In this document: in pieces, positions 7,154 through 24,289 of the stretch | Layout: every line of letters begins with the position of its first letter | Position numbering within the stretch: the first letter of the stretch is position 1 | Origin: Gemmatimonadota bacterium | Lineage (GTDB): Bacteria > Gemmatimonadota > Gemmatimonadetes > Gemmatimonadales > GWC2-71-9 | Direction of reading: 5' to 3' | Length of the DNA stretch: 64,000 nucleotides | Assembly: GCA_036679645.1 (NCBI GenBank) | Contig: JAZDCY010000014.1 | Coordinates: 64,001-128,000, forward strand | Notes under the pieces: generated by a model | Told to the model about the DNA's origin: nothing | The model's database searches: none | Seen by the model: the letters and a program-made list of their open reading frames with translations, nothing else | Translations under genes and position numbers: made by a program

Positions 7154-8455
7154 ATGAGCACAACTGCGTTAGACGAATCAATCGTCGGCAGAGGAAACCG
7201 GAACGGTGCCCGCTTGTTTCGGGAATGGTTCCAAGGGCTCACCCAGGCGGCCGAGGCAGGTCGCGGGTCGGCCTACGTCTTCGTCATGGGCAGCTTTGCC
7301 GAGTTGCTGCGGACGTTCGATTTTCCACTCGTTTTCCCGGAAATCAACTCGCTGCAAACTGCGGTACGGCATGTGGCCCATGAGTATCTCGATGAGGCGG
7401 AAGACTACGGGTACTCCCCGGACATCTGTGGCTACGTGAAGGCCGATGTCGCAACGCAGCTGCGGGGCGGCGAACATCCGATGGGGCGGATTCCCAAGCC
7501 GGCCATCGCCGTCTACACCAACGCCTGCAACACCTACATCAAGTGGGCCGAGATCTGGGAGCGGATGTACAAGATCCCCACCTTTGTGCTCGATATCCCG
7601 GGCACGCGGGCGGATGGCGCCCAGACTTACGCCGGCGACCGCGACTTCGAGAACGACCGCAAGTACGTGCTTGGTCAGTTGAGGGACTTGATCGGCTTGT
7701 GTGCAGAGGTGAGTGGCGTCCCCTTCGATATCGATCGGCTACGCGAGAGCATGGGACACGCAAACGCGATGTCGCGCGCCTGGAAGCATCTCCTGGAGTT
7801 GAATCAGGCCCGTCCGTCCGTATTCAGTGCACTCTCGGACGGAACGATCTACCTCGGTGTGGCCAACGGGTTTCGCGGCGCGGAAACAGGCGCCCGGTTC
7901 TTCGAGGAACTCGTTGACGAGATGGAATACAAGGCAGTGCACGGCATCGGCACGCTGACCGACGAGCAGTACCGTCTCATTTTTGTCGGCGTCCCATGCT
8001 ACCCGATCTTCCGCCGGTTCAACGAATTGTTTACCGATTGGGGCGGTACGTTCGTCAACTCGACCTATCTGTGGTTCGCATCTGGCGGGGCGAACCTCGG
8101 CTTCGAGTACGATCTGGCTCATCCCATCGAGAGTCTCGCAGAAGGCATCCTGCTCAGCGTGCGCGACGCCATGGACAGCATGTTCTTCCAGACGAAGATC
8201 CTGCGGACGATGGTCGACGACTTCCACGCAGACGGTGTCGTATACCACCCGATCAAGAGTTGCCGCACCGTGTCAACCGGCCTCGCCGACAACCGCCGGG
8301 CGCTCATGGCCGAACAGGATGTCGCAACACTGTTCATCGAATCCGACATGATGGACCGGCGTGTCGTATCCGAAGCGCAGCTCAAGAATAGGGTGGACGC
8401 CTTCTTCGAGGGTCTGGCGACACGACGGAACCCGACCGCTCGCACAACAGCTTAA
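7154..8455 (+). CDS. bcrB: Class I benzoyl-CoA reductase subunit B (BcrB/BadE; HgdA family)
   Basis: 433 aa; PEINSLQ, AEDYGYSPDICGYVKAD, NACNTYIKW, YHPIKSCR, FIESD...RVDAFFE. Confidence 0.85.
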   Translation: MSTTALDESIVGRGNRNGARLFREWFQGLTQAAEAGRGSAYVFVMGSFAELLRTFDFPLVFPEINSLQTAVRHVAHEYLDEAEDYGYSPDICGYVKADVATQLRGGEHPMGRIPKPAIAVYTNACNTYIKWAEIWERMYKIPTFVLDIPGTRADGAQTYAGDRDFENDRKYVLGQLRDLIGLCAEVSGVPFDIDRLRESMGHANAMSRAWKHLLELNQARPSVFSALSDGTIYLGVANGFRGAETGARFFEELVDEMEYKAVHGIGTLTDEQYRLIFVGVPCYPIFRRFNELFTDWGGTFVNSTYLWFASGGANLGFEYDLAHPIESLAEGILLSVRDAMDSMFFQTKILRTMVDDFHADGVVYHPIKSCRTVSTGLADNRRALMAEQDVATLFIESDMMDRRVVSEAQLKNRVDAFFEGLATRRNPTARTTA

Positions 8456-8473
8456 CGGGATCGAGGAGAGGTC

Positions 8474-9295
8474 ATGGCCTACGCCGCCGGCGTGGACGTC
8501 GGGTCCACACAAACGAAGGCCGTCATCATTGACGAGGCCCGTAACATCGTGAGCCGCGCGCTCACCGACACCGGGGCCAACGTGATTCGCGCCGCCGAAA
8601 ACGCTTTCCAGGAGTCCCTGCGCGCGGCCGACCTGCGTGAGGAAGAGGTCGAGTACGTCGTCGGCACCGGGTACGGTCGCTACAAGGTGACGTTCGGGAA
8701 CACGCAGGTGACCGAAATCAGCTGTCATGGCCGCGGCGCCGTCCACATGTTCCCCGCGACACGCACCGTCCTCGACATGGGCGGTCAGGACACGAAGGCT
8801 ATCAGCGTGTCGGATACGGGCGAGATCGTGGACTTCTGCATGAACGACAAGTGCGCCGCCGGTACGGGCCGGTTTCTCGGCGCAGCGTCGAGCGCGCTGG
8901 AGATCCCGCTGGACGAGCTGGGGCCGACGGCGCTCAACGGGGAGCGACCGGTGAAGATCAGTACCACCTGCACCGTCTTTGCCGAATCCGAGGTGCTATC
9001 GTGGCTCGGCAAGGGCAAGAAGATCGAGGACATCCTGCTCGGCGTGCACGAGTCGATCGCGACGCGGTCGGTGGGCCTCCTCAGACGGGTGGGCATCGCG
9101 AGCGAAGTGACGTTCACCGGCGGCGTCGCGCGCAACGTGGCCATGATCGACACGCTCAACCGGCGGCTGGGCATGGACGTGAATGTGAGCGAAGAGTCGC
9201 ACTACATGGGTGCACTGGGCGCCGCCCTCTTCGCCCTGGACCATATCGTGACGAGTCGCAGCCCCGCGAGCTCCGCCGCGCGGGAGACGGCATGA
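8474..9295 (+). CDS. bcrA: Benzoyl-CoA reductase ATPase subunit (BcrA/BadF/BzdQ-type ASKHA activase)
   Basis: [50 protein letters not shown] vs D assignment is uncertain. Confidence 0.8.
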
Positions 9296-10098
9296 CCCAT
9301 ACCGTCGGCATCGATGTCGGCTCGACCTACACAAAGGCCGCCGTGCTCGATGCCGATCTCCACCTCGTCGGCCGCGCCATGGCACCGACCGGATTCCGCC
9401 TAACGGAGATCGCGGAGCAGACGCTGCATGCCGCCGTGGCTGACGCTGGGCTCCGGCGTGACGAGATCGAGTACGTCGTCGCTACGGGGTTCGGCAGACA
9501 CCAGGCCACCATGAGCGACGTGCGAGTCACCGATCTGACGGCCAGCGCCAGGGGAGCGGCACACCTCTTTCCCAACACGCGAACCATCCTCGACGTCGGC
9601 GGCCAGACCATGAAAGCCAGCCGGCTGGGAGACAACGCTAAGGTCAAGTCGTTCCGCCTGAACGACAAGTGCGCGGCCGGCACCGGAGCCTTTCTCGAGA
9701 AGACCGCACGCTACATGGGCTATTCCACACAGGAAATCGGTCCCCTCGTCGCCACGTCGAAGCAGGCCGTATCGATCTCAGGCGTGTGTGCGGTATTTGC
9801 GGAATCGGAGGTCATCAACCACCTGTCCGAAGGGATGGCGCCGGCCGACATCATGCACGGGGCGATCGTATCGCTCGTGGGCCGGTCCGTGCAACTGATG
9901 AAACGGGTACGCATGGAGCCCGAGTTCACGCTGATCGGCGGCATCCTGCGGTTCGAGCGAATGGTGGACGTCGTGCGCGAGCAACTGGACGCGGACGTCA
10001 ACGTCGCCCCAGGCGATTTGGTACAGTTCACGCCGGCGTTCGGGGCGGCGCTCCTGGGCCACCGCCGCCTGGCCAAACTCAAGAGCGTCGCCGCCTGA
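9292..10098 (+). CDS. bcrD: Benzoyl-CoA reductase second ATPase subunit (BcrD/BadG/BzdP-type)
   Basis: ATG at 9292 overlaps the upstream stop (ATGA). [39 protein letters not shown]. Confidence 0.8.
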
Positions 10099-10100
10099 GC

Positions 10101-10412
10101 ATGCCGGCACAACCGCGTAACCCTGAGGACCTCATCAAGCCACTCGGCGCCCTTGTCGAGGGCGAGGCAAGGAGGGCCCTCTCGGAAGCGCAACTTGCAC
10201 CAGACCCGCAGCGACTCGCCGATGGATGGGAGCGGCGTTTCATCACCGACGCGCGCCGCGCGGAAGAAGTCATGGCACTGTACGAGCAACTCGGATTCGA
10301 GGTCGCCGCCGATGCAATTCGCCCGGAGGAGTTGGGCGACGAGTGCGACGATTGCCAACTGGCACTGCTCCAATTCAAGACGATCTACACCCGACCACGA
10401 CGCGCCGAATAG
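10101..10412 (+). CDS. Hypothetical 103-aa protein with a CxxC motif, inside the bcr operon
   Basis: Starts 2 nt after the bcrD stop and ends 20 nt before had; WERRF...ECDDC...TIYTR. Confidence 0.7.
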   Translation: MPAQPRNPEDLIKPLGALVEGEARRALSEAQLAPDPQRLADGWERRFITDARRAEEVMALYEQLGFEVAADAIRPEELGDECDDCQLALLQFKTIYTRPRRAE

Positions 10413-10432
10413 CGGCGCGCGGGAGAACCACA

Positions 10433-11455
10433 ATGCAAGCGGCAGTCTATCACGGTCCCAACCAGCCCCTTCGGATCGAGGACGTTCCGGTCCCCACCCC
10501 CGGCGCAGGAGAGGCACTCGTCAAGGTCGCAGGCTGCGGAATGTGCCACACCGATTTGCACTACCTCGACCATGGCGTGAAGCCGTTCAAGACACCGCCG
10601 CTCATTCTCGGGCACGAGGTCGCGGGTACCATCGAGCGCCTTGGCAGCGGGACGAACGGTTGGTCCGACGGAGATCGCGTTCTCATTCCCAGCGTGTTGT
10701 CATGCGGCCGGTGCCGGTACTGCCGGCAGGGACGGGAGAACCTGTGCGATGAGCTCGTCATGCTGGGCAACAACATCGACGGAGGATACGCCGAGTTCCT
10801 CACCGTCCCGGCACGGGAGATGATACGGGTTCCCGATACGCTGCCGCTCGAGCAGGCATGTGTCGTGGCCGATGCGCTCTCGACGCCGTTTCATGCGGTG
10901 AAACACCGCGGCAAGGTACGGCCCGGCGACGTTGTCGCCGTGATGGGATGCGGCGGCGTCGGACTGAACGTCGTGCAATGCGCCGCCATGGCCGGTGGAC
11001 GCGTCATTGCCATCGATCTCAACGACGACCGTCTTGCGCTCGCCAAACAGCTCGGAGCAGCGCAGACGATTAACCCCGCGGGCATCGAGCGTCTCGACAA
11101 ACACATCAAGAAACTCACCGGCGGAGGCGTGGACATCGCGTTCGAGGCAATCGGCAATCCCGACACGATGCGCGGTGCCTATGCCCTGCTCCGCAAGGGT
11201 GGCCGACTCTGCGTGATCGGCTACGCCGCGGGCGATGTCACGCTCTCGGCCGCGCGGCTCATGTACTACGAGCTGGAGGTCGTTGGCAGCCTGGGGTGCG
11301 GTGCCGGAGAGTACCCGGAGATTATTGCCCTGGTCGAAGCCGGGCGCCTTACGCTCGAGCCGATCGTGAGCGGCTGTCTGCCTCTCGAGCAAATCGACGA
11401 AGGGTTTGATCGGCTGCGACGGGGTGAGGGTGTGCGGTGGGTGGTGACTCCTTAG
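10433..11455 (+). CDS. had: 6-hydroxycyclohex-1-ene-1-carbonyl-CoA dehydrogenase (Had/BzdX; Zn-dependent MDR)
   Basis: CGMCHTD, LGHE, CGRCRYC..C, GCGGVG, VADALSTPFHA; operon context. Confidence 0.82.
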   Translation: MQAAVYHGPNQPLRIEDVPVPTPGAGEALVKVAGCGMCHTDLHYLDHGVKPFKTPPLILGHEVAGTIERLGSGTNGWSDGDRVLIPSVLSCGRCRYCRQGRENLCDELVMLGNNIDGGYAEFLTVPAREMIRVPDTLPLEQACVVADALSTPFHAVKHRGKVRPGDVVAVMGCGGVGLNVVQCAAMAGGRVIAIDLNDDRLALAKQLGAAQTINPAGIERLDKHIKKLTGGGVDIAFEAIGNPDTMRGAYALLRKGGRLCVIGYAAGDVTLSAARLMYYELEVVGSLGCGAGEYPEIIALVEAGRLTLEPIVSGCLPLEQIDEGFDRLRRGEGVRWVVTP

Positions 11456-11506: not shown

Positions 11507-11698
11507 TCAGCCGCCCTCGGGCCGCTCCCGCACGCGCAACCCATGTGACCGCCGCCGCCTGGCAAACAGCGCGGCCACCTCGCCCAATCGCTCAATCCGC
11601 TCGAGCTTCTCACGGAAGGGAAGCGCCAGGAAGTCCTGACGCTGCCGGCGGCGGTTCCCCTCCCATGTCGCGGTGCTCCAATCGGCCCGATCAACCAT
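11507..11698 (-). CDS. Small hypothetical protein, partner of the nucleotidyltransferase (TA-like)
   Basis: 63 aa MVDRADWSTATWEGNRRRQRQDFLALPFREKL...; overlaps the stop of the NTase gene. Confidence 0.6.
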   Translation of the reverse strand: MVDRADWSTATWEGNRRRQRQDFLALPFREKLERIERLGEVAALFARRRRSHGLRVRERPEGG

Positions 11699-12173
11699 CG
11701 CCGGCGTCCCCATGCAGCAGCCGCAGCTCCGCAACATCCGCGAGGTCCTGCGGTCGGCCCGCCTCTCGCTTGAGTCGGAGCAGGGCCTGCAACCGAACGA
11801 CGCGTACCGGGACGCCCGGGGCCACCTCCTCCACCAGCGCGCGCCGGTACTCGTCGTCGAAGTCGAACGGCTCGACGGCGAACACGTCCACCGGGGTCTC
11901 ACGGTGCCGTCCCTTTTCCGCGATCCATCGGGCCCGTACCGCAGGATCACTGAATCCCTCGGCTGTGACAGGCAGCCGCGGCTCATAACCAAGCGACTTC
12001 AGCGCCGCAAACGCCGCCCGCACGTGCTCAGGCACGAGTTTGATGACCAGGTCCAGGTCCTCCGTGAGCCGCCCGTAGCCGTGCGCGTTCACGGCGAGTC
12101 CCCCAACGACGATGTATGGGACACCGGCATCATTCAGCGCACGCGCCACGGCCTCCACGCTCGCAACCCTCAC
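11691..12173 (-). CDS. Nucleotidyltransferase-fold protein (DUF6036/AbiEii-like)
   Basis: VVGGLAVNAHG..RLTEDLDL, VDVF, LLRLKREAGRPQDLADV. Confidence 0.8.
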   Translation of the reverse strand: MRVASVEAVARALNDAGVPYIVVGGLAVNAHGYGRLTEDLDLVIKLVPEHVRAAFAALKSLGYEPRLPVTAEGFSDPAVRARWIAEKGRHRETPVDVFAVEPFDFDDEYRRALVEEVAPGVPVRVVRLQALLRLKREAGRPQDLADVAELRLLHGDAGDG

Positions 12174-12821
12174 CCACTCAACTCCAGCGGCGGTTCGAGG
12201 TCGCTGGTAATCTCATTTATGGTGCAACCGTGCTTGGTGTGACGTCCGGCCGTTATCAGCATCATGTCGTTCATGGCCATCCGGACACAGGGTAGCCTGA
12301 TACAACGGGGAGTCGACCCGAATGGGAAGTACTCCATGGTATGCGAGATCCACGGCACCCTTGTTGGTTCAATAATACCGAATTCTATCCCCCGCGCGCG
12401 TCAATCCAGTGAAAACGACGCCGGGCACCTTCATCGTGTCCGTCCGCCAGACGCTCAGACGCTCGATGGCTATCCAACAGCTATGCCCGGCCGCCAGGCG
12501 CGCGATTGGAGTGCTTGCACGTTGTGGATCACCGCGTCGAAGCACGCGTTGTGGCCCACCAGTGTTCTGAGCGCAGATTCGCCACGCCACTTGGAGATAC
12601 AAAGCAGCAACAACAGTCGCAAAGCGATGTGTCATAGTGGGGAAAAAGCGACGTGATTTCCGCCACCGGAGGATTGCCTGATCCATGAGTTCGACCGGAC
12701 TTGATAGATTCATAGATTTTTCATCGTGCCTTTAGGCCAGGCTCTCTAGACTTATGTGGGGTGCTTGGAAAGTTCGGATTGCCTTTCTGTTGCGGCTGTA
12801 GCTCCATTTGGGGGATCATCG

Positions 12822-13433
12822 ATGCCGCTCGATAGGCACCTCGCAGCTCTTGCGACGGCGGTCGCTATCGGAGCCACGAGCCTCGTAGTCGTGCTTGGCC
12901 TACAGAACCGGTCACTCGAGACTCGCTATGGCGAAGCACGGCGTCTTGCTACGGAACTGTATCCGGGATACGGCGTCCCGGAATTCGCTACTGCTACGCT
13001 GGAGGGTGACTCCGTCGTCCTCGGCGCCGCGCCAGAGTCCGTTCGCCAACTTCTCCTCGTATTTGACACAGAGTGCGACTACTGCCGCGCCACTGTACCG
13101 GCATGGAAACAAGTGCTCAGTGTCCTCGATTCTGCTTCGTATCGGCCGATCCAGGTTCTTGGCATCTCTCTCGACAGTGACAGCGCCACGCGAGTGTACC
13201 TGGAGGACCTCGAGTTCGCTCTTCCGACGGTCACGATGCGCGACCCGAAAACCCTCCAGCTGTATCGTCTTCGGTCAGTACCTCAGACGATCCTCCTGGG
13301 GCCGCGTGGATACGTCATGTTCGCGAGGACTGGCCAGCTCTCGACCCCCGAAGCGGTAGACACTCTGCTTCAAGTAATCAAGCGTGTCGCTGGTGACGTG
13401 TCTTCCACAGAAACTGCAATACGTTCGCATTAG
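12822..13433 (+). CDS. Membrane-anchored thioredoxin-fold (TlpA/redoxin-like) protein
   Basis: N-terminal TM helix, FDTECDYC active site, LGISLD, SVPQT cis-Pro loop. Confidence 0.85.
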   Translation: MPLDRHLAALATAVAIGATSLVVVLGLQNRSLETRYGEARRLATELYPGYGVPEFATATLEGDSVVLGAAPESVRQLLLVFDTECDYCRATVPAWKQVLSVLDSASYRPIQVLGISLDSDSATRVYLEDLEFALPTVTMRDPKTLQLYRLRSVPQTILLGPRGYVMFARTGQLSTPEAVDTLLQVIKRVAGDVSSTETAIRSH

Positions 13434-13506
13434 GGCCATGGAGAACTCCGTTGATTGGGAGCCCTGAGGAACCCACAGTGGGAACCGCAAACTGAAGGAG
13501 GACTGT

Positions 13507-13743
13507 ATGTCGCGCATCACGAAGGTTGCCGCACGAGCTTGTGGTGCGGCTATTGTCGTAGGTGGACTGCTCTTTGGCACGTCCCAAGCCCTTGCAGGCT
13601 CATCAGACGGCTGCTTGTGGGACCCTCCACACCTGGGGTCATGCGCCAACCAGGTCGACTGTCAGTACAAGTGTGATCAGTACTACGGCTATGGGTACTA
13701 CGGCAGCTGCACAGCTGGCTGTTGCCACTGTATCGAGTGGTAG
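13507..13743 (+). CDS. Secreted cysteine-rich peptide (8 Cys, CS-alpha-beta/defensin-like spacing)
   Basis: Strong RBS AAGGAGGA at 13495-13502; 30-aa Sec signal ending ALA; 48-aa mature region C-x9-C-x5-C-x3-C-x11-C-x3-CC-x-C. Confidence 0.8.
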   Translation: MSRITKVAARACGAAIVVGGLLFGTSQALAGSSDGCLWDPPHLGSCANQVDCQYKCDQYYGYGYYGSCTAGCCHCIEW

Positions 13744-13753
13744 CCCAGCGTGC

Positions 13754-13784
13754 CCGGCGGGGTGAGGCTCCCACACCTCGCCGG
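13754..13784 (+). terminator. GC-rich hairpin after the peptide gene (terminator or mRNA stabiliser)
   Basis: CCGGCGGGGTG...CACCTCGCCGG stem with one G-U pair; no U-tract. Confidence 0.45.
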
Positions 13785-13889
13785 CCCTCAGGCTCGGGAC
13801 CGTCAAAGGACGTCTGGAACAGGCGGACGCTACGTTTCCCGACCATAACGCCTCATTTTCGCGCGCGCCCCGGGTTCCGAGGTGCGGCC

Positions 13890-15173
13890 GTGTTGTTACC
13901 GGTGCTTCTTGCGGCGTGCCAGCAGGAGACGATTCTCTTGCCGGGTCGTGGGGCCGCACCTCGGGATTCCTCTGCGATTGATACAAGCGGCACGACAACG
14001 GACACAACGGTAGTCCAGCGCGTGGGACTCGTACTGGCCGTTCGAGTTGGCGGCGAAGATTCAGTGCTCGCGAATGCCCTAGGATGGCAGACCAACGCGA
14101 TTCCCGGCGCTGAAGTTACAGTGCAGCGATCAGGTTCATCGATCCGGCAGACCGATCGAACTGGATTGGATGGGTCGGTAGAATTCCCTGCGCTGTTGCC
14201 CGGCGAGTACCGGGTCTCGGCCATCCGAATTCTGACGCCCAGCGAATCATCCTTGCTGGGTCCTGGGAACGAGGATGTCGACGCCTTTGGGGGGAGTACA
14301 AGTCTCATACTCGAACCGCCTGCGGCCGAGGACACCCTCGTCATCGGTGCTGGTCGCCGTGGCTCACTCGTAATCAGCGAATGGTCTTTCTATATCGCGA
14401 TCATCAACGGGACGCCCTATGAGTTCGGCGGTTTTCTGGAACTCTACAATAACTCAGACAGGACCGTGTACCTCGACGGGAAGCTGTTCGGGGCCGGGTT
14501 TTCGGCGGCGTTTGAAAGCCCCGTCGAGCCCTGCAGCACTTGGGCCACGTACCGGAATGATCCACAAGGTGTCTGGACCGAGACAGTCTTTCGCTTTCCG
14601 GGCTCAGGCCAGGACTACCCCGTAGCGCCAGGGCAGACGATAGTGATGGCGACGGACGCGATTGACCACGGTCAACTTGTCACCGGCGGACTGAACCTTC
14701 GCAATGCACAATTTGAGTTTCTCGGTAGCGGCGATGTCGATAATCCCACCGCCGCGAACATGATTGACGTGGGTCCGCGCCCCTTCACGCTCTTCGCCCA
14801 CGGGTTCTTCTTCTTCACGACTGCGGCGCTTCCCTTTCTCGCTGACGCCGTTGACCTCAGTACCCTCCCGACAGCAAGGCTTTTCGCAAGCGGAAGAGAG
14901 TACGTCCGCATACCAGCCAACAAACTACTGGACGTTGCAGCCTTGCGTTACTTCGGACCGAGCCTCGGGCCAGCGTGTCCGGAAATGGTCCATGCCAGTA
15001 TCGACGGCGCAGCGTTTCTCATGCCAGAGGACAATCCGGGCGGGGCCCGTTCGGTGCAGCGACGCGTCATCGGTAGCTTCGCGACTGGTCGTCAGGTTCT
15101 GCTACGTACCCGTACCAGTGCTCGCGATTTCGACTATCGCGTTCGCACCCCTGGTAGCCTACCCAGGCCCTGA
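13890..15173 (+). CDS. DUF4876-like lipoprotein (Ig-like domain plus lamin-tail-like domain)
   Basis: Lipobox LLAAC (Cys codon 13917); LVISE, FLELYNNSDRTVYLDG, FRFPGSGQDYPVAPG, ATDAIDH, DVDNP, RTSARDF. Start uncertain: GTG 13890 or in-frame ATA 13845. Confidence 0.7.
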   Translation: MLLPVLLAACQQETILLPGRGAAPRDSSAIDTSGTTTDTTVVQRVGLVLAVRVGGEDSVLANALGWQTNAIPGAEVTVQRSGSSIRQTDRTGLDGSVEFPALLPGEYRVSAIRILTPSESSLLGPGNEDVDAFGGSTSLILEPPAAEDTLVIGAGRRGSLVISEWSFYIAIINGTPYEFGGFLELYNNSDRTVYLDGKLFGAGFSAAFESPVEPCSTWATYRNDPQGVWTETVFRFPGSGQDYPVAPGQTIVMATDAIDHGQLVTGGLNLRNAQFEFLGSGDVDNPTAANMIDVGPRPFTLFAHGFFFFTTAALPFLADAVDLSTLPTARLFASGREYVRIPANKLLDVAALRYFGPSLGPACPEMVHASIDGAAFLMPEDNPGGARSVQRRVIGSFATGRQVLLRTRTSARDFDYRVRTPGSLPRP

Positions 15174-15201
15174 TCGAACGGGCCACTGGAAGATCCCTGA
15201 C

Positions 15202-18039
15202 ATGTGCGGCCGTCGCGCAGTCCTCCCGTTCGTCCTCCTGCTGGGGGGAACCATGCACGGCACGCTTGTCTCGCAGGAGCAAGTGGTAGGTCCTCTGATC
15301 AGGGGACGGGTGACCGACCATGTGTCGGCGCTTCCCATCGCGGGAGCGATTGTGGCACTTGAGGGGAGCGGATTCAGTGCTATGACCGACACGGCTGGCA
15401 ACTACAACTTGATCAACTTGCGACCCGGACCGGCCATCCTGCTCGTTCGGATGATCGGATACGCCCCTGCCAGAGTACCGCTCGTTGTTCCACCGTCCGG
15501 CATTCTCCATCGCAACATCGCGCTGGCACGAAATGCCCTTGAACTCGCCGAGATCATCGTGACCGCTGATCCGGCCGGCCGCGCGCGCGGCGAATTGGGA
15601 ACAGCAAGTGTCATTGAACACGACGCCATCGTGAACCAGACGGCGGCGAGCATCGCTGGTATTCTCGAGCTAGTCCCCGGCATACCGCTCGCGGCTCCGG
15701 GCCTCGAGGAAGTGCAGCAGATCCAGCTCCGCACCGCCCCGGTGTCTAGCGGGGGAATAACGGCCGGCCCCAGTGGCGCCGATATCGCAGCGTTCGGCAC
15801 CACTATCATCCTCGACGGAGTTCCGCTGTCAAACAACGCCAACCTACAGAACACCGGACCGCGAGGTGAACTGCGGCCCCCTAGCTCCTCCGGGGGCGGC
15901 ATCGATCTTCGGCGCATTCCGGCATCAACTATCGAGCGCGTGGAGGTCATTCGGGGTGTGCCCTCCGCCCGCTACGGCGATCTGACTCACGGCGTGATCG
16001 TCGTCGATACGCGCGCGGGGCGAGTGTCGCCGGCAGCTACCGTCCGGTACGATGCGCGGACGACTGAAGCCAGCCTCGTCGGGGGATGGCGTTTGACCCC
16101 TGATCACACTGCCACCGCCCACTTCGACGTGGCCCGTACGAGGAAGAACCCCGGTATCACTGACGCCGATGTCCTACGCCTGACGGGACAACTGGCCCAC
16201 CGGGCGGCATTCGGGTTGCAACAGGACCAGCCCGCGACCCGTGCGCAGTTGGAGTTCGACACACGACTCGATTTCTTCCGGGTGGTCGAGGACAATCCGG
16301 AGCAGCCAGACGTTCTCCCTGGTTTCGCGACGCGCGCGAGCGACTTTGGCTTTCGGCTGTCCGAACGTGCCCGATTCCATCCGTCCCCGAACTCTGCCTT
16401 CGTGCTAACGCTGGCAATGGACCACACTCGACAGCGGTCATTTGTCCAGTCGTTCCGCCTCCGAGGAGCGCTCCCGTTCACTGATCGCCTCGAGGAAGGT
16501 CTGGCGATTGGCCGCTACGTGGGGGGCGAGTACTTGTCGCGCGTCGATCTCGAGGGAGATCCGTGGCTTGTTTATGGGCGTGGTGAGTGGGTGGGCGCGC
16601 CACGCGGTCTGGGAGGCCTGGACCATCTGTTGCGCGCGGGGTTCGAATTGCGGCGGGAGTGGAACGAGGGTGCAGGCTACCAATTCGACATCGAGTTCCC
16701 CCCCCAAGTTCGGTTCAACGGAGTACAGGGCTTTGACCGGCCAAGGCGATTCGACGCGGTGCCGCCTCTCGCGACCAGCGCCCTGTACCTGACGGACAGG
16801 ATCTCCGGGCAGCCGCTTCTTGGCATGCCCCTCCAAGTTCAGGTCGGTGCTCGCGTGGATGTTCTCCACCGTGGGACGACCTGGATCTCGGGGTACCGTG
16901 ATCTCGTCTGGCAGCCGCGCATGAACGTAGAGCTGGGGCCTCGTTGGTGGCTCCGCATCCGGGCGGGCGTCGGGAAAACGGCGAAATACCCGTCGCTTGG
17001 AAGCCTCTTCCCTCCCCCCCAATACTTCGACGTCGTCAACGTGAACTGGTTCGTGACCGATCCCGCCGAGCGTCTTGCTGTCTTGACCACGTCCATCAGC
17101 GATCCAACCAATCCAGATCTCGGACTCTCCGCCACCTGGAAGCGCGAGGTGGGCGCCGAAATGTCGCTCGGCCGGCGGGGCGGTTCTATCGCAGTCGTCC
17201 TCTTCGACGACCGAACAACAGGGGCAGTGGGGTTTCGCTCAGTCACTGGTTTCCTCACACGTGCTCGCTACGCCCTGTCCGATTCCTCCGAAGGCACCGG
17301 CGTACCCCCAACCATCATCCAACCACCGGCGTACACGGACACGGTTCCCATTCTGATCGACGAACCCACCAACAACTTGACGGTATCCAGTAAGGGCTGG
17401 GAGGTGTCCGCCAGCCTCCCGGAGATTCCCAAAACCCAAACCCGGCTTGACATCCAGGCGGCATTCATCGAGACAAGGGTCTCCCGCACGGATGTGGTTT
17501 TTGGATCCGGCACTCGGTTCTCCGAGTTTCAACTGAACGGCGCAGTTCCGCGAGCCCCATACTGGGAGGGCGCGACCGGTACCGGTCAGCGACTGACGGC
17601 CACGTTCCGCCTGGTTCACCACCAACCGCTCCTCGGCTTGGTCATCACCGGCACTATGCAGTTCATCCTGCGCGAGTCGAGACGCGACATAGGGGGAACC
17701 GATACGTTGTCTTTTGCCGGCTACGTCACGCGTGCCGGTGAGTTGGTTCCCGTCCCGACGAGTGACCGAACAGCACCCCAGTTCGCAGATCTTCGCCAAC
17801 CCCGTGGCGGCCTGCTGATCGAGCCGCGAGGCACGCCTGATGACTGGCTACTCAGTCTTCAGGTATCCAAAACGCTTCCACTGGGAGGTCGGTTTTCATT
17901 CTACGCGTTTAACGCTCTTGACCGCGAGGGCAGGTTTGCGCGTGCAGGGACCACACCGCGACCGTTTCCCAGGATGCGCTTCGGCCTCGACATCGCCATG
18001 CCGTTGCGCTCGGTTCTCGGTGCCTGGATGGATCCGTGA
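15202..18039 (+). CDS. TonB-dependent receptor with N-terminal carboxypeptidase-regulatory-like domain
   Basis: Signal peptide; IRGRVTD...MIGY; plug motif GGIDLRRIPASTIERVEVIRGVPSARYGDLTHG; long beta-barrel. Confidence 0.9.
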   Translation: MCGRRAVLPFVLLLGGTMHGTLVSQEQVVGPLIRGRVTDHVSALPIAGAIVALEGSGFSAMTDTAGNYNLINLRPGPAILLVRMIGYAPARVPLVVPPSGILHRNIALARNALELAEIIVTADPAGRARGELGTASVIEHDAIVNQTAASIAGILELVPGIPLAAPGLEEVQQIQLRTAPVSSGGITAGPSGADIAAFGTTIILDGVPLSNNANLQNTGPRGELRPPSSSGGGIDLRRIPASTIERVEVIRGVPSARYGDLTHGVIVVDTRAGRVSPAATVRYDARTTEASLVGGWRLTPDHTATAHFDVARTRKNPGITDADVLRLTGQLAHRAAFGLQQDQPATRAQLEFDTRLDFFRVVEDNPEQPDVLPGFATRASDFGFRLSERARFHPSPNSAFVLTLAMDHTRQRSFVQSFRLRGALPFTDRLEEGLAIGRYVGGEYLSRVDLEGDPWLVYGRGEWVGAPRGLGGLDHLLRAGFELRREWNEGAGYQFDIEFPPQVRFNGVQGFDRPRRFDAVPPLATSALYLTDRISGQPLLGMPLQVQVGARVDVLHRGTTWISGYRDLVWQPRMNVELGPRWWLRIRAGVGKTAKYPSLGSLFPPPQYFDVVNVNWFVTDPAERLAVLTTSISDPTNPDLGLSATWKREVGAEMSLGRRGGSIAVVLFDDRTTGAVGFRSVTGFLTRARYALSDSSEGTGVPPTIIQPPAYTDTVPILIDEPTNNLTVSSKGWEVSASLPEIPKTQTRLDIQAAFIETRVSRTDVVFGSGTRFSEFQLNGAVPRAPYWEGATGTGQRLTATFRLVHHQPLLGLVITGTMQFILRESRRDIGGTDTLSFAGYVTRAGELVPVPTSDRTAPQFADLRQPRGGLLIEPRGTPDDWLLSLQVSKTLPLGGRFSFYAFNALDREGRFARAGTTPRPFPRMRFGLDIAMPLRSVLGAWMDP

Positions 18040-19601
18040 CGCGCTTCGTCACCGTCGTCTTGTGGCTAGCCACAATGCAGTCGCTGCAGGCTCAAGAGTG
18101 GACTGACGTCTGGAGCCCCTTCCGCCCGCTCTCGGACGTACCGCGGCATGGACCTCAACCGCCACACATAGCGGTGCCGCTGCTTTTTGGACCCGCCCGG
18201 GTAGGGGAACTGTGGACCGCCGGCAACCCCGCCGGGGCCGCCTGGGACGTACGTGACGCACACACGTCATTTCTCTTGAGCTATGGTCGGGAGGATGGCG
18301 CGTTCCGGCGGCCCCTCGATCCAGAGGCGGTCAACAATCCTCGCCTGGCGGCGGTCGCTTGGAGGCCGGTGCGGAGCAACATCGCCGCCGTCGGTCGCCT
18401 CACCCTAGAGCAGCAACGGCACCGGCCCGGATCCAATGCGGCGGTGGCGTTTCCGTACGGGACGAGCCCACTCGTGCCCACCGACAGCTCATCGCCGCCT
18501 ACAACCCTGACCAGAGCCCGTCTGGAGGGGCTCGTTGCGTGGCGGTTCGACCAGTGGAGCTTCGGCCTCTCGTTGGGATACGAATCCTGGGACAACCGCA
18601 CCCGGGAAACACCAGTCCCGCGCATCGGTCGTCGCGTCGCACCGGCCGGCGCCTTCGGAATCGTTCGTGCAATAGGCAGGCTGTTTCTCCTGGGCCTGCA
18701 TGTGCGCGGACGACGTACCGTGGAAACCGTGACGATCAACCCGCTGGCCGGCACCAGTACCGTCCACGAACTTGATGGCTTCAGCGACCCCGAACCAATT
18801 CCCGTCATTGCCCTTCGATACCGCCGTCGGATCACCACGGATGAAAGGGCAGCAGGGACCTCCGCGACCGGTTCGTTGGGGCTAGTCCACTGGACAGCCT
18901 ACGGGCGCAAGGAGTGGCGAGACCAGTGGCACAGCAGCCTGGAGCAGGAGAATCCTCCCGTGGACGCTTGGCGCGCGTCAGGTATCACGCTCGGTGGCGC
19001 ACTCCAGTACGTAGCTTCCAATCGAATCCCGATGATCACTGTGCACGCGTCTCGAACCTCCATCAGCGGTCACGCTGAGCGCGCCGACCTTGACGGTACG
19101 ATCTTCCGCGCGAGCGAGCGCGTGACACGCGCCGGAATCGAACTCCGCTCGGATGACACCACCGCGACCTGGGCTGGTGCCATCGGGCTCACCATTACGC
19201 ACGAGTCCCGGTTCCGGGAGGATTTCCTGGTACAACACATCGCCGATCTAAGTGAATGGACGCCGGGTGCGACCGTCGAGATAGTGCATCGCTTCGAGAC
19301 CGGGACCAGCATGGCGGTCGCAGGCTCACTCGGGTGGCACTCGGCCGTTTCTCGCATTCCGGACCCTGCCACGCTGGGCCCAATCTATCAGCAGCTCATT
19401 GCGCCCGAACTGGCGCTCTATGCGCAACGTGCCTATCCGTGGCTGGTGCGGATATCCGTGCGTCAGCGTCTGAGTACGCACACGTCACTTCTGGTCTCGG
19501 CGTCCCATCGCGTTCTTCGGCCGGCGTCTACTTCGGCAGTCCCGGCAGCCCCTGGCGGCTTGCGCAGATCATGGCATTTCCTCGCTGGACTCGTGCTCTA
19601 G
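18036..19601 (+). CDS. Outer-membrane beta-barrel protein (DUF6850-like)
   Basis: Signal peptide, AGNPAG motif, amphipathic beta strands; GTGA-coupled to the TBDR. Confidence 0.6.
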   Translation: MTRFVTVVLWLATMQSLQAQEWTDVWSPFRPLSDVPRHGPQPPHIAVPLLFGPARVGELWTAGNPAGAAWDVRDAHTSFLLSYGREDGAFRRPLDPEAVNNPRLAAVAWRPVRSNIAAVGRLTLEQQRHRPGSNAAVAFPYGTSPLVPTDSSSPPTTLTRARLEGLVAWRFDQWSFGLSLGYESWDNRTRETPVPRIGRRVAPAGAFGIVRAIGRLFLLGLHVRGRRTVETVTINPLAGTSTVHELDGFSDPEPIPVIALRYRRRITTDERAAGTSATGSLGLVHWTAYGRKEWRDQWHSSLEQENPPVDAWRASGITLGGALQYVASNRIPMITVHASRTSISGHAERADLDGTIFRASERVTRAGIELRSDDTTATWAGAIGLTITHESRFREDFLVQHIADLSEWTPGATVEIVHRFETGTSMAVAGSLGWHSAVSRIPDPATLGPIYQQLIAPELALYAQRAYPWLVRISVRQRLSTHTSLLVSASHRVLRPASTSAVPAAPGGLRRSWHFLAGLVL

Positions 19602-19792
19602 GGTAACTCCCATGCGGGTATCGTCGTGCCGCCCCGCGACTTCCGTCCGCGAAGCGCGGGGCTGGACGTAACCGCGGATCGTGGCCATGACCGGGTTCTA
19701 CGCGTTCGACCTCAACGGCAACCGGCTCTGGGACGTGCATATGGGCGCCGGGGAAGAGCCGTGGTTTGCGGGGCCGCCCAGGCGCTCCGGGG

Positions 19793-21496
19793 TTACCCGA
19801 TAGCTGCACCTGGGCGCCAGCCGCGCGACTGGAGTGCCTGCACCTTGTGAATCACCGCGTCGCGCGCGGCGTGTATTGGGAGCACGATCAAGTCACCCTC
19901 CCGGGCCCACGCCAGCGCCTCGCGCAGGGCCCCCAACTCGTCGTCAACCCGTGCCACGCTTTCCTCGGCGACACCGAGTTTGTCCAGCTCGTCCGCGATG
20001 ATTGCCGCCACCTCCCCTTCCGGTCTGCCACGCAGGTAGGTCCGCATCTCCTTGATGATCACGCGATGGGGTGCGAACGTGATCGCCGCGCGCACGAGAT
20101 CACGAATGTCGTCGTCGCTCCGGTCGCCTGCCTGGCCGATTACCACGAGCCGACGTTTGGCGGGCATCGCTTGGACCATCTCGCCTACCGCTCGCATACC
20201 GTGCGGGTTGTGCGCGAAATCCAGAAAGACCCGCACTCCACCCAGATCGAACAGATGCCCTCGGCCGGGGTTCGCGTCCGGTGTACTCGCGAAGTGGTGG
20301 ATCGCCGCGCGAATGGCCGCTGATGACACACCAATGGCGCGCGCGACGGGAATGGCACCGAGAATGTTGGAGGTATTGAATTGCGCCGCACCACCGAAGG
20401 TGATCGGCGCATCGGCAACCGCACCGTAGTCTTCGGTAACCCCGCAGGTACGAAACGCAAAACGCCCATCCGCCACGAACGCGGCGTCGTCATCCGGCAT
20501 CGTATCGGTCATGCCGAACCACACGTGTGCGGCGACCTCGACATCACGAGCGCGGCGCATGACCACCGGATCGTCCGCGTTCGCCACGAGTACCCCACTC
20601 GCCCGCACGGCATGTGCGATCACGAGCTTCGCCCGGGCGATATCGTCGACGGTGGTCACGCCAAACTCACCCAGATGATCCGAGGCGACGTTGGTGAGCA
20701 GCGCGGCGTCCGCACGTTCCACCATCAAGCCTCGGCGGAGCAGCCCGCCACGGGCGGTTTCCAGCACGGCGACCTCCACGCGTCGGTCGCGCAAGATTGC
20801 GCGCGCCCCTCCCGGACCGGACCAGTCACCGGCATCGATCCGATCTCGACCGACGTAGAGCCCATCCGTATTGCTGCAACCCGCGACCTGGCCGTCTTGC
20901 GCGATCATCGCCGCAAGCAACCGTACGGTCGTGGTCTTCCCGTTGGAGCCCGTGACGAGCGCCACCCGCACGTCGTGAATCCCGTTCCAGTCCACCGCTG
21001 ACGGTGCCGGCAGGACGTGCGTGGGCCACGTCAGTGAGCCCACGCCCATCCCAACCGACACTTGATCGTCATCCCACAAGAACGCCACCCCATGGGCGCG
21101 CGCCGCTTCCCGGAGCGCGAGCATCGCAGGGTTCCGCTCAGCGGCAATGGTCGCCTGCAACCGCGGCGCAACGACCTCGAGCGGCGACGGCGACGCTCCA
21201 CCAAAGTCGGCGCAGGTGGCGGCCCAGGCCCACTCGTTCACCTCTGTCGCCGCGTAAAGCGCGTCGATGGGCACCGTGAGCACGAGACTCGCACCTCCCG
21301 GAAACGTCCGAACGGCTGTGCGCTGGTCCTTCCACCCAACCGCGTCGAGGGCGTCTCTCGCGTGCACCTTCCAGCGCGCGATGACGGCATCTCCGTCGAC
21401 GCCGGCGATATGAACGTCGAGCACCGCGCCAGCGACACTGGTCTGGAGATTGGGACCGGTCAGTCGGCGCGAGTCACGCTGTTCGAGCGTCGGCAC
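19793..21496 (-). CDS. Cyanophycin synthetase-like Mur-ligase protein (N-like domain plus M domain, no ATP-grasp)
   Basis: GTG 2 nt after the cphA stop; DSRRLTGPN N-terminus; VTGSNGKTTT, LETARGGLLRRG, DHLG, NADD, PGR, DFAHNPH, GDR. Confidence 0.85.
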   Translation of the reverse strand: MPTLEQRDSRRLTGPNLQTSVAGAVLDVHIAGVDGDAVIARWKVHARDALDAVGWKDQRTAVRTFPGGASLVLTVPIDALYAATEVNEWAWAATCADFGGASPSPLEVVAPRLQATIAAERNPAMLALREAARAHGVAFLWDDDQVSVGMGVGSLTWPTHVLPAPSAVDWNGIHDVRVALVTGSNGKTTTVRLLAAMIAQDGQVAGCSNTDGLYVGRDRIDAGDWSGPGGARAILRDRRVEVAVLETARGGLLRRGLMVERADAALLTNVASDHLGEFGVTTVDDIARAKLVIAHAVRASGVLVANADDPVVMRRARDVEVAAHVWFGMTDTMPDDDAAFVADGRFAFRTCGVTEDYGAVADAPITFGGAAQFNTSNILGAIPVARAIGVSSAAIRAAIHHFASTPDANPGRGHLFDLGGVRVFLDFAHNPHGMRAVGEMVQAMPAKRRLVVIGQAGDRSDDDIRDLVRAAITFAPHRVIIKEMRTYLRGRPEGEVAAIIADELDKLGVAEESVARVDDELGALREALAWAREGDLIVLPIHAARDAVIHKVQALQSRGWRPGAAIG

Positions 21497-21498
21497 CC

Positions 21499-24285
21499 TC
21501 AGTCTTCGGTATCGCGGGCTAGGCGCACGCCGCGCTCGTCCCGGATGACCTCCTGGCCGGCATCGATATCGATCGTCGGTAGGTCCGGCAGCTCCGGTGC
21601 TGGCCGCTTCGCGACCTCGCACCCGTCGCGCGTCGTTCCATCACTCGTGTAGTTCACCACCTGCTTCCAGGTCCGCCCAATCTGATCGGCGAAGAGCACG
21701 AGCAGATCGTCCGGCCGCGCGGCCTCGAGAGCCGCCGCCACGGCGGCCCGTTCCTCCGGGATGGTCTCGACCGCGTCCGTGGCAACACCATTGTCGATGA
21801 GGGCACGCTGCAGCATGCGGGGTACCTCATCCCCGTCTCGCCCGCGCAGGGCATCGTCGCGCCGGCAGATGTAGTGGTCGAACGCGCCCGCCGCGATCGT
21901 TCCCATTTCGATGATATCCTCGTCCCGCCGGTCGCCGGGAGCGGCTAGCACGCATAGCCGCCGGCCGACCACGTCCAAGCGGCCCACGAGATCGCACATG
22001 ACCTGAATTGCGTGGGGGTTGTGCGCGTAGTCTACGATCACCTTGAACGGCAACTCGTTGTATACGTTGAGCCGGCCCGGTGCCTGAAAGTAAGTGGAGT
22101 CGAAGGTACGGAGCCCGTGTCGGACATCTTCGAGCTTGAGACCAGCGCTGTACGCCATGGCCGCCGCGAACATGGCGTTCTGCACGTTGTGGATGGCTTT
22201 GCCCTCGATCGTCGCCGGGATGAGATGGGTCCACAGCAACGGCAAGTGCGCGCCCTTGTCGTAGAACGTGATCATGTGCCCGCTGATCGCCTGCTCGAGC
22301 ACCACCGCTCGCCCACCCGCCTGGATGTGCTCGCGGACGAGCGCGTGCTGCGGGTTCATCGTTACGTAGCAGACGTGTTCCGCATCGGAATAGTCCGCCA
22401 TCTTGAGACACAACGGGTCGTCGGCATTGAGCACGGCGGTGTTCTTCGCAATCTCGATGACCACCCGCTTCACCTCGGCCAGTTGCTCGAGCGTATCGAT
22501 ACCGCGTAGGCCAAGGTGATCGGCCTGCACGTTGAGACACGCGCTCACGTCGCTGCGGCGGTACCCCATGCCGGCGCGCAGCAGTCCACCCCGTGCCGTC
22601 TCGAGCACCGCGACCTCCACCGACGGGTCACGCAAGACCATACGCGCCGCCACTGGACCGGTCATGTCGCCTTCGACCGTCCGCTGCCCGTCGATGTACA
22701 CGCCGTCCGTCGTGGCCACGCCGACGGTGTGTCCTGCCATCTTGTAGATGTGGGCCAGCATCCGCGTCGTCGTCGTCTTGCCGTTGGTACCGGTGATTGC
22801 GAGGATGGGAATGCGGGCCGGTGTACCGGGCGGGAAGAGCATGTCCATGACCGGTCCTGCGACATCACGGGGTATCCCCTCACTCGGCTGGACGTGCATG
22901 CGGAATCCGGGAGCCGCGTTCACCTCGCAGATTGCACCGCCGATGTCCTTGTAGGACTTGGTAATGTCCGACGTGAGGAAATCCACGCCAGCCACGTCCA
23001 GGCCAATCGCCTGCGCCGCACGGACGGCCATCTCACGGTTATCCGGGTGAAGCACGTCGGTCTGATCGACCGCGGTCCCACCGGTTGATAAGTTGCCCGT
23101 CGATCGGAGGTAGACCACTTCGCCTTTGGGCAGCACGGTCTCGGACGTGTACCCCAGCAATCCGAGCAGCCGGTTAGCCTGGTAATCGAATTCGATCCGC
23201 GTCAACACCTTCTCGTGTCCGATCCCGCGTCGCGGATCGGCATTCACCTCGTCGACCAACTCCGCGATCGTGTGTACCCCATCCCCAACGACGTGCCCGG
23301 GGACACGTTTCGCCACGGCGACGAGATCACCGTTCACGACCAGCATTCTATGATCGAAGCCCGCAATGTACGACTCGATCAAGACACCGCGTGAATGCTC
23401 CCGCGCCTGGGAAAACGCCGCACGCACGTGGTCGCGGTCACCAATGTTGATCGAAACACCGCGACCGTGGTTCGCGTTCAACGGTTTGACCACTACCGGA
23501 TAGCCCATGCGTTCCGCTGCCCGCAGTGCGTCCTCTTCGGAGTAGACGAGTCGCTGCTTGGGAACGGGAAGACCAAGATCGCCGAGGATACGATTGGTCT
23601 CGTCCTTGTCGGACGAGATCTCGACCGCGATATGCGGTGTTCTACTGGTGACGGTGGCTTGGATGCGCTGCTGATAGCGACCGTGTCCGAATTGGACGAG
23701 GCTGTACTGGTTCAGCCGCAGCATGGGGATGTCGCGTTCGCGCGCCGCGCGGACGAGTGCCGCCGTTGAGGGTCCCAGGGCATGGCGCTGCGTATACCGG
23801 ATGAACGCATCGCGCTCAGTCGCGAAATCATAGTCATCGGCGACGGCACCCGCGGGCTGCAGTTCCCGCGGGAGAAGCGAATGGAGGAGATTCAGTCCCA
23901 CGCGACCGGCCTCGAGACCGACCCGTGCCTCCTCGTACTCGTACACGACGTTGTACCGTCCCGGCGCACCGGTCGTCCGCGTCCGACCAAAGGTGACTTG
24001 CTCACCGGCGGCATTCTGCAACTCGAGCGCCGTGTGTTCCAGCACGTGCCCGAGCCACGTACCTTCATCCTCCCGCAACCGCCGTACGAACCCACCGGGC
24101 TCACCGTACGAGCACCCGTGTTCGCCGAGACCCGGGAGCGCCTCCAACAACCCATCGATGAACGCGTTGCCCAGGCGCACGCTGGGCCACTCCTCGAGCG
24201 TGCCCAGGTCGAGCACGAACCGAATCACGGGGAAGTGCGCGTAGAGATTCGGGCCCAGGTAGACGGAGCGTTCGACGATGTCCAT
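21499..24285 (-). CDS. cphA: Cyanophycin synthetase CphA1
   Basis: N domain CSYGEPGGF...GHVLEH; LGPST; ATP-grasp VVKPLNANHGRGV, NLSTGG, EVNAAPGFRMH; Mur domain TGTNGKTT, DYAHNPH. Confidence 0.96.
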   Translation of the reverse strand: MDIVERSVYLGPNLYAHFPVIRFVLDLGTLEEWPSVRLGNAFIDGLLEALPGLGEHGCSYGEPGGFVRRLREDEGTWLGHVLEHTALELQNAAGEQVTFGRTRTTGAPGRYNVVYEYEEARVGLEAGRVGLNLLHSLLPRELQPAGAVADDYDFATERDAFIRYTQRHALGPSTAALVRAARERDIPMLRLNQYSLVQFGHGRYQQRIQATVTSRTPHIAVEISSDKDETNRILGDLGLPVPKQRLVYSEEDALRAAERMGYPVVVKPLNANHGRGVSINIGDRDHVRAAFSQAREHSRGVLIESYIAGFDHRMLVVNGDLVAVAKRVPGHVVGDGVHTIAELVDEVNADPRRGIGHEKVLTRIEFDYQANRLLGLLGYTSETVLPKGEVVYLRSTGNLSTGGTAVDQTDVLHPDNREMAVRAAQAIGLDVAGVDFLTSDITKSYKDIGGAICEVNAAPGFRMHVQPSEGIPRDVAGPVMDMLFPPGTPARIPILAITGTNGKTTTTRMLAHIYKMAGHTVGVATTDGVYIDGQRTVEGDMTGPVAARMVLRDPSVEVAVLETARGGLLRAGMGYRRSDVSACLNVQADHLGLRGIDTLEQLAEVKRVVIEIAKNTAVLNADDPLCLKMADYSDAEHVCYVTMNPQHALVREHIQAGGRAVVLEQAISGHMITFYDKGAHLPLLWTHLIPATIEGKAIHNVQNAMFAAAMAYSAGLKLEDVRHGLRTFDSTYFQAPGRLNVYNELPFKVIVDYAHNPHAIQVMCDLVGRLDVVGRRLCVLAAPGDRRDEDIIEMGTIAAGAFDHYICRRDDALRGRDGDEVPRMLQRALIDNGVATDAVETIPEERAAVAAALEAARPDDLLVLFADQIGRTWKQVVNYTSDGTTRDGCEVAKRPAPELPDLPTIDIDAGQEVIRDERGVRLARDTED

Positions 24286-24289
24286 GGGA

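Follow-up and report, generated by a model that had tools for sequence, protein, structure and literature searches.

A redoxin and a predicted defensin-like peptide recur beside a DUF4876, TonB-dependent transporter and DUF6850 trio in Gemmatimonadota

In a 64,000-nucleotide stretch of a Gemmatimonadota bacterium genome (GCA_036679645.1, contig JAZDCY010000014.1, positions 64,001 to 128,000; hereafter the window), five adjacent genes encode a redoxin, a small eight-cysteine peptide, a DUF4876 lipoprotein, a TonB-dependent transporter (TBDT) and a second barrel of the DUF6850 family. Sequence comparisons across genomes indicate that this association is real, conserved and modular, and that it consists of a peptide module (redoxin and peptide, the pair) and an uptake module (lipoprotein, TBDT and second barrel, the trio), not of one operon. 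We tentatively read the cassette as a capture system in which a self-made peptide carrier would be recaptured by cognate lipoprotein lids and imported by the TBDT, probably with a metal as cargo, and we give this reading somewhat less than an even chance. The genes of the locus are as follows.

12822..13433, + strand: redoxin gene (AhpC-TSA, 26.1 bits)
13507..13743, + strand: eight-cysteine peptide gene (78-amino-acid precursor, no Pfam or NCBIfam match)
13744..13798, + strand: weak hairpin 3′ of the peptide gene, no U-tail (z -2.04)
13722..15173, + strand: DUF4876 lipoprotein open reading frame (ORF) (PF16215; lipobox cysteine codon at 13917-13919)
15202..18039, + strand: TBDT gene (Plug, 44.4 bits)
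18036..19601, + strand: DUF6850 barrel gene (PF21012, 42.4 bits)

All five genes are real and co-oriented, as the initial annotation had described them, and a Pfam search bears out its recognition of the trio: DUF4876 scores 30.6 bits against a cut-off of 27.9, the TBDT Plug domain (PF07715) 44.4 against 23.9, and DUF6850 42.4 against 27. The lipoprotein has no clear canonical start; TTG at 13722 overlaps the peptide gene and GTG at 13890 makes the signal too short. The same annotation saw less GC-biased codons than in the flanks. This holds for the first three genes (third-position GC content of 0.63, 0.65 and 0.64, roughly the lowest 8%) but not for the TBDT and barrel (0.71, ordinary), with seven flanking genes at 0.74-0.87 and a crude genome median of 0.75. 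Its proposal that the hairpin lets peptide messenger RNA accumulate in excess has weak support elsewhere, since hairpins with z < -2 follow the peptide in 10 of 31 co-oriented loci versus 10 of 80 after redoxin genes. In the window 10 of 200 shuffles were equally good, and a terminator scan did not list the hairpin.

The TBDT clade is patchy, being present in 3 of 60 relatives. From 42 TBDT loci examined, six were dropped (two of a distant clade, one lacking the trio and three duplicates), and a redoxin and/or peptide gene stands at 27 of the remaining 36; seven have neither and two are too short. The best 80 of 296 metagenome stretches gave 69 lipoprotein loci, some of them redundant, and 55 of these carry a redoxin and/or peptide gene (23 of 28 where the locus spans at least 6 kb). 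Among 400 genomes of the phylum, the redoxin is found in 20, the lipoprotein in 27 and both in 16, where independence expects about 1.4, a contrast that is inflated because the profiles were seeded from cassette members and related genomes are not independent. DUF6850 was left out of these counts because its Pfam model under-detects this clade, finding only one of the four copies in the source genome.

A lipoprotein follows the peptide directly in 62 of 84 cases, 31 co-oriented and 31 convergent, with 22 otherwise placed. Since same-strand and opposite-strand placements of the peptide relative to the lipoprotein are equally common, no single five-gene transcript is conserved, which rules out a five-gene operon as the conserved unit. 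Of the unit proposed in the initial annotation, what stands is that trio and redoxin-peptide pair are repeatedly linked, but both modules also occur alone and separate strands are common. Peptide and lipoprotein are moreover duplicated together, with or without the redoxin and without the TBDT, in tandem units on contigs C19/C24 of the source genome and at L038, L073, L106, L159, L163 and L170.

Four more such loci lie in the source genome itself, and a pattern scan of that whole genome found six peptides, all six inside these loci. C97 keeps the gene order of the window, with a frameshifted barrel; at C8 the pair is divergent from the trio; C24 has a lipoprotein, a broken peptide and redoxin, then TBDT and barrel; and C19 holds three tandem lipoprotein-facing-peptide units, with a redoxin upstream of the peptide as far as the contig extends. 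C19 and C24 each start at a contig end and may be joined in the genome. Beside the C97 cassette (G000:C97:2745-4237, - strand) we also observed a second type of secreted cysteine-rich protein followed by a long exported protein, and AraC-like helix-turn-helix (HTH) genes flank this cassette on both sides.

Each module also occurring alone, the window copy being an insertion relative to a congener and insertion sequence genes lying near some loci would all fit a loose co-location, in which pair and trio are functionally unrelated and merely co-travel on mobile islands. Adjacency is kept, however, through inversions and reordering in several families, the tandem duplication is joint, and among the 114 loci considered, of which 87 yielded neighbours, no other gene family turns up at more than 6. 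We consider such co-location highly improbable.

The lipoprotein profile matches PDB 4q1z at E 3e-25. In bioRxiv 2023.03.17.533168, members of the DUF4876 family are predicted to cap TBDTs as lids whose opening measures about 20 Å, and one homologue is surface exposed; by analogy, the window lipoprotein is a putative lid. Within the arrays of the source genome, lipoprotein differences fall in short clustered segments. Variable lipoprotein columns are enriched in neither charge nor aromatics. The TBDT comprises a CarboxypepD N-terminal extension, a plug and a barrel region. PF00593 finds no match in it, while matching the distant homologue L035. An identity as SusC/RagA was rejected (TIGR04056, 59.3 against a cut-off of 368.25; the partner is DUF4876, not SusD). 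It shares 24% identity over 789 amino acids with the TBDT of a Prevotella locus that also holds DUF4876 and DUF6850. As a separate observation, the distant-clade trio at L035 (8268-19460, genome G176) is divergent from a CobW GTPase gene and has a Fur-family gene about 5 kb away, neighbours that suggest control by zinc or metal starvation.

The second barrel was modelled by AlphaFold2 with a predicted local distance difference test score (pLDDT) of 93.3, showing about 18 strands, read by eye from the DSSP line, and an N-terminal segment of about 55 residues. A fold search returned generic barrels only (best CymA, Z 18.1, root-mean-square deviation 5.3, 286 aligned), and its profile found nothing credible among PDB sequences. 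The arrangement of TBDT, second barrel, lipoprotein and small secreted protein shares the gene logic of type 11 secretion (DUF560/Slam) as outlined in the accessible part of PMC8406197, unlike which the barrel here is DUF6850 with about 18 predicted strands and the candidate cargo is a 5-kDa disulfide peptide. The type 11 system as such was rejected, since no window protein matches DUF560 in Pfam at E 0.1; the fold search of the barrel had no Slam-type row either, which is no exclusion.

The DUF6850 barrel, the TBDT or both might still form a type 11-like machine that secretes or displays the peptide, or surfaces the lipoprotein, with no re-import. The plug-less extra barrel always follows the TBDT, type 11 barrels export lipoproteins as well as soluble proteins (PMC8406197, accessible part), and PMC11658791 mentions a protease that is exported in a TonB-dependent way. 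The missing DUF560 match speaks against export, as do pair-only genomes that lack this machinery, trio-only genomes that would have nothing to export, and the one-to-one duplication of peptide and lipoprotein, which it leaves unexplained. We regard this alternative as very unlikely.

The redoxin is a putative membrane-anchored thioredoxin-fold thiol-disulfide oxidoreductase. Its AhpC-TSA score is borderline (26.1 bits against a cut-off of 26), it has an N-terminal hydrophobic anchor, and C85, C88 and P154, the CxxC motif and the proline loop, are invariant in 24 homologues. MauD has a dedicated oxidoreductase role, and its gene lies beside that of a cysteine-rich exported substrate. The redoxin shares with MauD and ResA the membrane anchor, thioredoxin fold, CxxC motif and this kind of gene neighbour, yet it forms its own clade, CPYC is its commonest motif (32 of 83 tallied), and it falls far below the NCBIfam cut-offs for ResA, MauD and DsbE (25.9 vs 170, 21.1 vs 188.6 and 16.4 vs 123, respectively), identities that were therefore rejected; a weak StoA match likewise stays below its cut-off.

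The window peptide has a Sec-type signal of about 30 residues followed by an anionic 48-residue mature part with eight cysteines spaced 9-5-3-11-3-0-1. All 29 aligned peptides have eight cysteines and fall into two registers. The C..CxxxC..C..CxC core is common to both, and what sets them apart is where one cysteine lies, which we infer to be the partner of the first. A profile search at E <= 0.001 returned 789 representatives (clusters at 50% identity); among the top 150 inspected, one was an unrelated long protein, and the remaining 149 gave the statistics that follow. Eight cysteines occur in 147 of them and a net negative charge in 141 (median -4), unlike the cationic defensins of published abstracts. 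The ten relatives that were looked up are all singletons at 90% identity, named 'hypothetical' or without a name. The sequences thus describe a large, hypervariable, anionic peptide family that the initial annotation had overlooked. Weak profile matches in G170, G312, G373 and G328 were discarded because they were non-members or ORFs in the wrong frame; those in G349 and G281 were discarded because they belong to other kinds of small cysteine protein and have no redoxin. An Atlas search gave, as a lead only, one hypothetical cluster at 0.78, with Acidobacteriota as its commonest phylum.

Three weak lines agree in predicting a defensin, or cysteine-stabilized alpha-beta (CS-αβ), fold for this family. 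First, a single-sequence AlphaFold2 model (pLDDT 78.8) gives strand-helix-strand-strand with the predicted helix packed on the β-hairpin. Second, the Foldseek rows listed for it are scorpion-toxin-fold peptides and plant defensins, all CS-αβ, with a best E of 0.032 and none at or below 0.001. Third, defensin families in Pfam match weakly (E <= 0.05) in 32 of 136 members for AtDEF-like and 26 of 136 for Gamma-thionin. In sequence, the window peptide fits the CS-αβ motif C-X5-12-C-X3-C-X9-10-C-X4-5-C-X-C (PMC6989792, accessible text) apart from X11 in place of X9-10; 58 of the 149 peptides fit strictly and 144 fit a relaxed form. Cysteines, glycine and the signal region are well conserved among 136 peptides, and nothing else is.

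Mature peptides share 52% identity, against 71-73% for leaders, redoxins and lipoproteins, and the pooled ratio of nonsynonymous to synonymous substitution (dN/dS), computed on non-independent pairs with dS near saturation, is 0.38 for the mature peptide, 0.32 for the leader, 0.27 for the redoxin and 0.20 for the lipoprotein. Actifensin (PMC6989792) and AdDLP (PMC5116183), as described in the accessible parts of these papers, show near-identical core cysteine spacing, strong diversity and several copies per locus, as here. The peptides of the cassette differ in having eight cysteines instead of six or four, an anionic charge, a Sec-type signal in place of an ABC-type leader, a dedicated CxxC redoxin, a TBDT cassette where those loci have ATP-binding cassette (ABC) transporters, and a Gram-negative host. 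Export of the actifensin type was rejected, given the hydrophobic Sec-type signal and the lack of a recurrent ABC exporter.

An alternative reading is a polymorphic, narrow-spectrum bacteriocin that would enter kin through the TBDT family, with DUF4876 lipoproteins as cognate immunity proteins or decoys and the extra copies as orphan immunity genes. Actifensin, a bacteriocin of CS-αβ fold that is also hypervariable and multi-copy (PMC6989792), is a precedent. Mature peptides diverge faster than leaders, redoxins and lipoproteins, lipoproteins often outnumber peptides in arrays, and pair-only genomes, because they lack the receptor, would need no immunity. The peptides are anionic, however, the pooled dN/dS of the mature part is low with synonymous sites near saturation, and DUF4876 is present without the pair in Prevotella and is predicted to serve as an uptake lid at loci that iron depletion induces. 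A toxin gene beside its own entry receptor would also be unusual. On balance we judge a bacteriocin unlikely, although it is the strongest competitor of the capture reading and accounts well for pair-only genomes and surplus lipoproteins.

In one Longimicrobiales clade (L057, L060, L063, L065, L067 and L069), genes for an extracytoplasmic function (ECF) sigma factor and a zf-HC2 anti-sigma factor lie between the pair and the TBDT; L063 retains them without the pair. The peptide could also be a kin-recognition or density signal, a strain-specific pheromone read by cognate lids whose uptake or binding alters gene expression. Such a role would suit the lock-and-key variability without conserved chemistry outside the scaffold, the sigma and anti-sigma genes preceding the TBDT in that clade, and the AraC-like HTH genes near five other loci and C97. 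No regulator is present in the window cassette or at most loci, though, a Pfam scan of the window TBDT found no signalling-domain match, and L063 keeps its regulator after losing the pair, and we find a signalling function clearly unlikely.

The two modules are separable in both directions. In the lipoprotein tree, peptide-less loci are nested in several clades, which suggests that loss was repeated. Register-B peptides fall in one poorly supported clade plus L052, a grouping that does not demonstrate co-evolution because kin share labels. Stand-alone pairs were seen at L110 (9133-11710), L111, L113 and L122, with three peptides and two redoxin-like genes in G274. The neighbours of others, which may be alternative partners, are CarboxypepD/plug proteins that lack a barrel match, or a TolB-like propeller. 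At L053 (G289:C50) the whole trio is present twice in tandem, in copies with identical scores and without the pair, which could be an assembly repeat; G289 also carries full cassettes and stand-alone pairs.

Returning to capture and re-import, which we tentatively prefer, the peptide would be secreted through Sec and folded, with the help of the neighbouring redoxin, into a predicted defensin-type mini-protein with four disulfides. It would exit across the outer membrane, possibly through the DUF6850 barrel, be recaptured by a cognate DUF4876 lid and be drawn in through the TBDT, probably carrying a scarce metal. Variable peptides with matching lids would privatize this cargo, and surplus lids, like genomes that have lids alone, would serve to scavenge peptides from other producers. 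The linkage, the joint duplication of peptide and lipoprotein, the lid prediction, the metal context of iron-induced homologues and of the CobW and Fur-family neighbours at L035, the anionic charge and the FusA precedent count in favour. Through the TBDT FusA, Pectobacterium takes up ferredoxin, which is small and folded, for its metal, a precedent for the import proposed here (PMC11658791; PMC6042079). The protein imported in that system comes from the host, and a periplasmic protease takes part, whereas the cassette has a self-encoded candidate ligand, a lid lipoprotein and no recurrent protease. A metal is the probable cargo by analogy with the iron induction of Bacteroidota homologues: upon iron depletion PG1019-22 rises 20.8-214.5-fold and BT3625-33 36.7-128-fold (PMC10434189, accessible text).

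Several results weigh against this reading. What points to a metal was observed in homologues that share about 24% identity, and since no His, Asp or Glu column reaches 50% conservation among the 136 peptides, these have no conserved metal site. The BT3625-33 locus includes PepSY and ABC genes (PMC10434189, accessible text) that do not recur in the cassettes, and across the same 114 loci no reductase, protease or ABC transporter is recurrent beside them. The one Bacteroidota locus examined, that of Prevotella, has the lipoprotein, TBDT and a DUF6850-like barrel and no pair, and the trio therefore functions without it. Conversely, in 4 of the 20 redoxin-positive genomes (95-99% complete) the pair is the only module found, neither a lipoprotein nor a TBDT of this clade having turned up. 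Ten redoxin places had no earlier link to a cassette; three of them adjoin a lipoprotein and seven do not. All seven have a peptide gene downstream, one of them apparently frameshifted, and one place lies some 8.5 kb away from a cassette. Of the 27 genomes with the lipoprotein, 11 lack the redoxin (three of these are partial lipoprotein matches and two belong to a distant clade), so that the independence of trio and pair, by which the initial annotation would have counted itself refuted, is in part what is found. Across 37 triples, peptide distance correlates with that of the lipoprotein at a partial rho of 0.24 versus 0.10 for the redoxin (Mantel-type), with a bootstrap interval of the difference from -0.07 to 0.24. 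Positive selection on the mature peptides is not supported either, their pooled dN/dS of 0.38, near saturation of dS, being below 1, and the inflation of the co-occurrence counts points the same way. A complex prediction of lipoprotein and mature peptide, run without controls, scored 0.05 and 0.02 and is evidence neither way.

The trio belongs to a known but uncharacterised class of DUF4876-lidded TBDTs and is distinct from SusCD, the Capnocytophaga iron capture system (ICS) and type 11 secretion. As in the lid and non-SusC TBDT pairs of Bacteroidota (BT1938-BT1939, BT3632-BT3633 and PG1019-22; bioRxiv 2023.03.17.533168, accessible text), a lipoprotein stands beside a related TBDT, often in several copies, and the Prevotella locus likewise adds a DUF6850-like barrel. 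Unlike these pairs and the Prevotella locus, the window has a redoxin-peptide module attached, which duplicates with the lipoprotein. The Capnocytophaga system was set aside when Pfam and NCBIfam scans found no SusC, RagB/SusD or zinc metallohydrolase here; the Riemerella homologues of icsC/D/E are annotated as SusC/RagA, RagB and zinc metallohydrolase in the accessible part of PMC5429918. A bufferin-type modified peptide metallophore, which has a co-encoded tailoring enzyme, was likewise rejected, with no such enzyme among recurrent neighbours within 4 kb. The cassette may work like a haemophore-type capture system. Our literature search, outside which most subscription papers lay, found no description of the combination and nothing on DUF6850, and the pairing of a dedicated redoxin with a defensin-like peptide that is hypervariable and anionic appears to be undescribed so far.

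The window copy of the cassette lies within a stretch that a congener lacks. The flanking features are as follows.

11507..12255, - strand: flanking nucleotidyltransferase module (DUF2204)
12452..12539, - strand: left copy of a direct repeat, duplicating in frame the final codons and stop codon of a cphA-like gene (88 nt, 78% identity)
19688..19779, + strand: gene scrap, 3′ part of a lipoprotein-like gene (92% identical to contig C49 of the same genome)
19775..19862, - strand: right copy of the direct repeat, the 3′ end of the cphA-like gene at 19793-21622

The 88-nt direct repeat (78%), unseen by the initial annotation, brackets the five-gene unit, and its copies differ by eight synonymous and four non-synonymous codons across 23 codons. 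From the alcohol dehydrogenase gene to the 3′ end of the cphA-like gene there are about 450 bp in the congener G002 and 8.3 kb in the window, so the cassette and the nucleotidyltransferase module are an insertion relative to G002. The ORF list and a Pfam scan revealed no integrase between the repeats. The gene that had been called toxin-antitoxin-like, a function that is at most putative, encodes a nucleotidyltransferase (DUF2204, 22.5 against a cut-off of 20.3; AbiEii below its cut-off); it is not among the recurrent neighbours of the cassettes and lies outside the conserved unit. It has 88% DNA identity to contig C49 and lacks about 9 residues of the C49 copy. Both outer flanks (11507-12255 and 19688-19779) match the ends of G000:C49:14433-18328 in the same order, at 88% and 92%, with different genes between them than in the window; the two regions may share a mobile framework in which the cargo was exchanged. 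Farther out, 19793-25123 (- strand) holds a cyanophycinase-like gene (by the ORF list), a full cyanophycin synthetase and a second, shorter cphA-like gene with Mur-ligase domains only. On the other side, 7154-11455 (+ strand) holds genes that we take to encode subunits resembling 2-hydroxyacyl-CoA dehydratase/benzoyl-CoA reductase, two activases and a zinc alcohol dehydrogenase.

In Bacteroides and Porphyromonas, few loci respond to iron as strongly as the DUF4876-lidded TBDTs, for which the accessible text of PMC10434189 and bioRxiv 2023.03.17.533168 gives no substrate or mutant phenotype. The cassettes provide this orphan transporter family with a first candidate ligand that is concrete and synthesizable, and the ligand question becomes testable because they supply natural cognate and non-cognate pairs. 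A wider extension, which we hold to be rather doubtful, is lock-and-key uptake, in which co-duplicated cognate lids on the TBDT would recapture secreted, hypervariable defensin-fold mini-proteins and so keep a scavenged nutrient private, lid-only strains would pirate them, and the whole DUF4876-TBDT-DUF6850 family, including the peptide-less, iron-induced loci of gut and oral Bacteroidota, would import the disulfide-rich mini-proteins of others. The peptides themselves would represent a large unannotated bacterial family of defensin-like proteins with four disulfides and a dedicated folding catalyst, as predicted here, with relevance to where the CS-αβ fold came from and what roles it serves.

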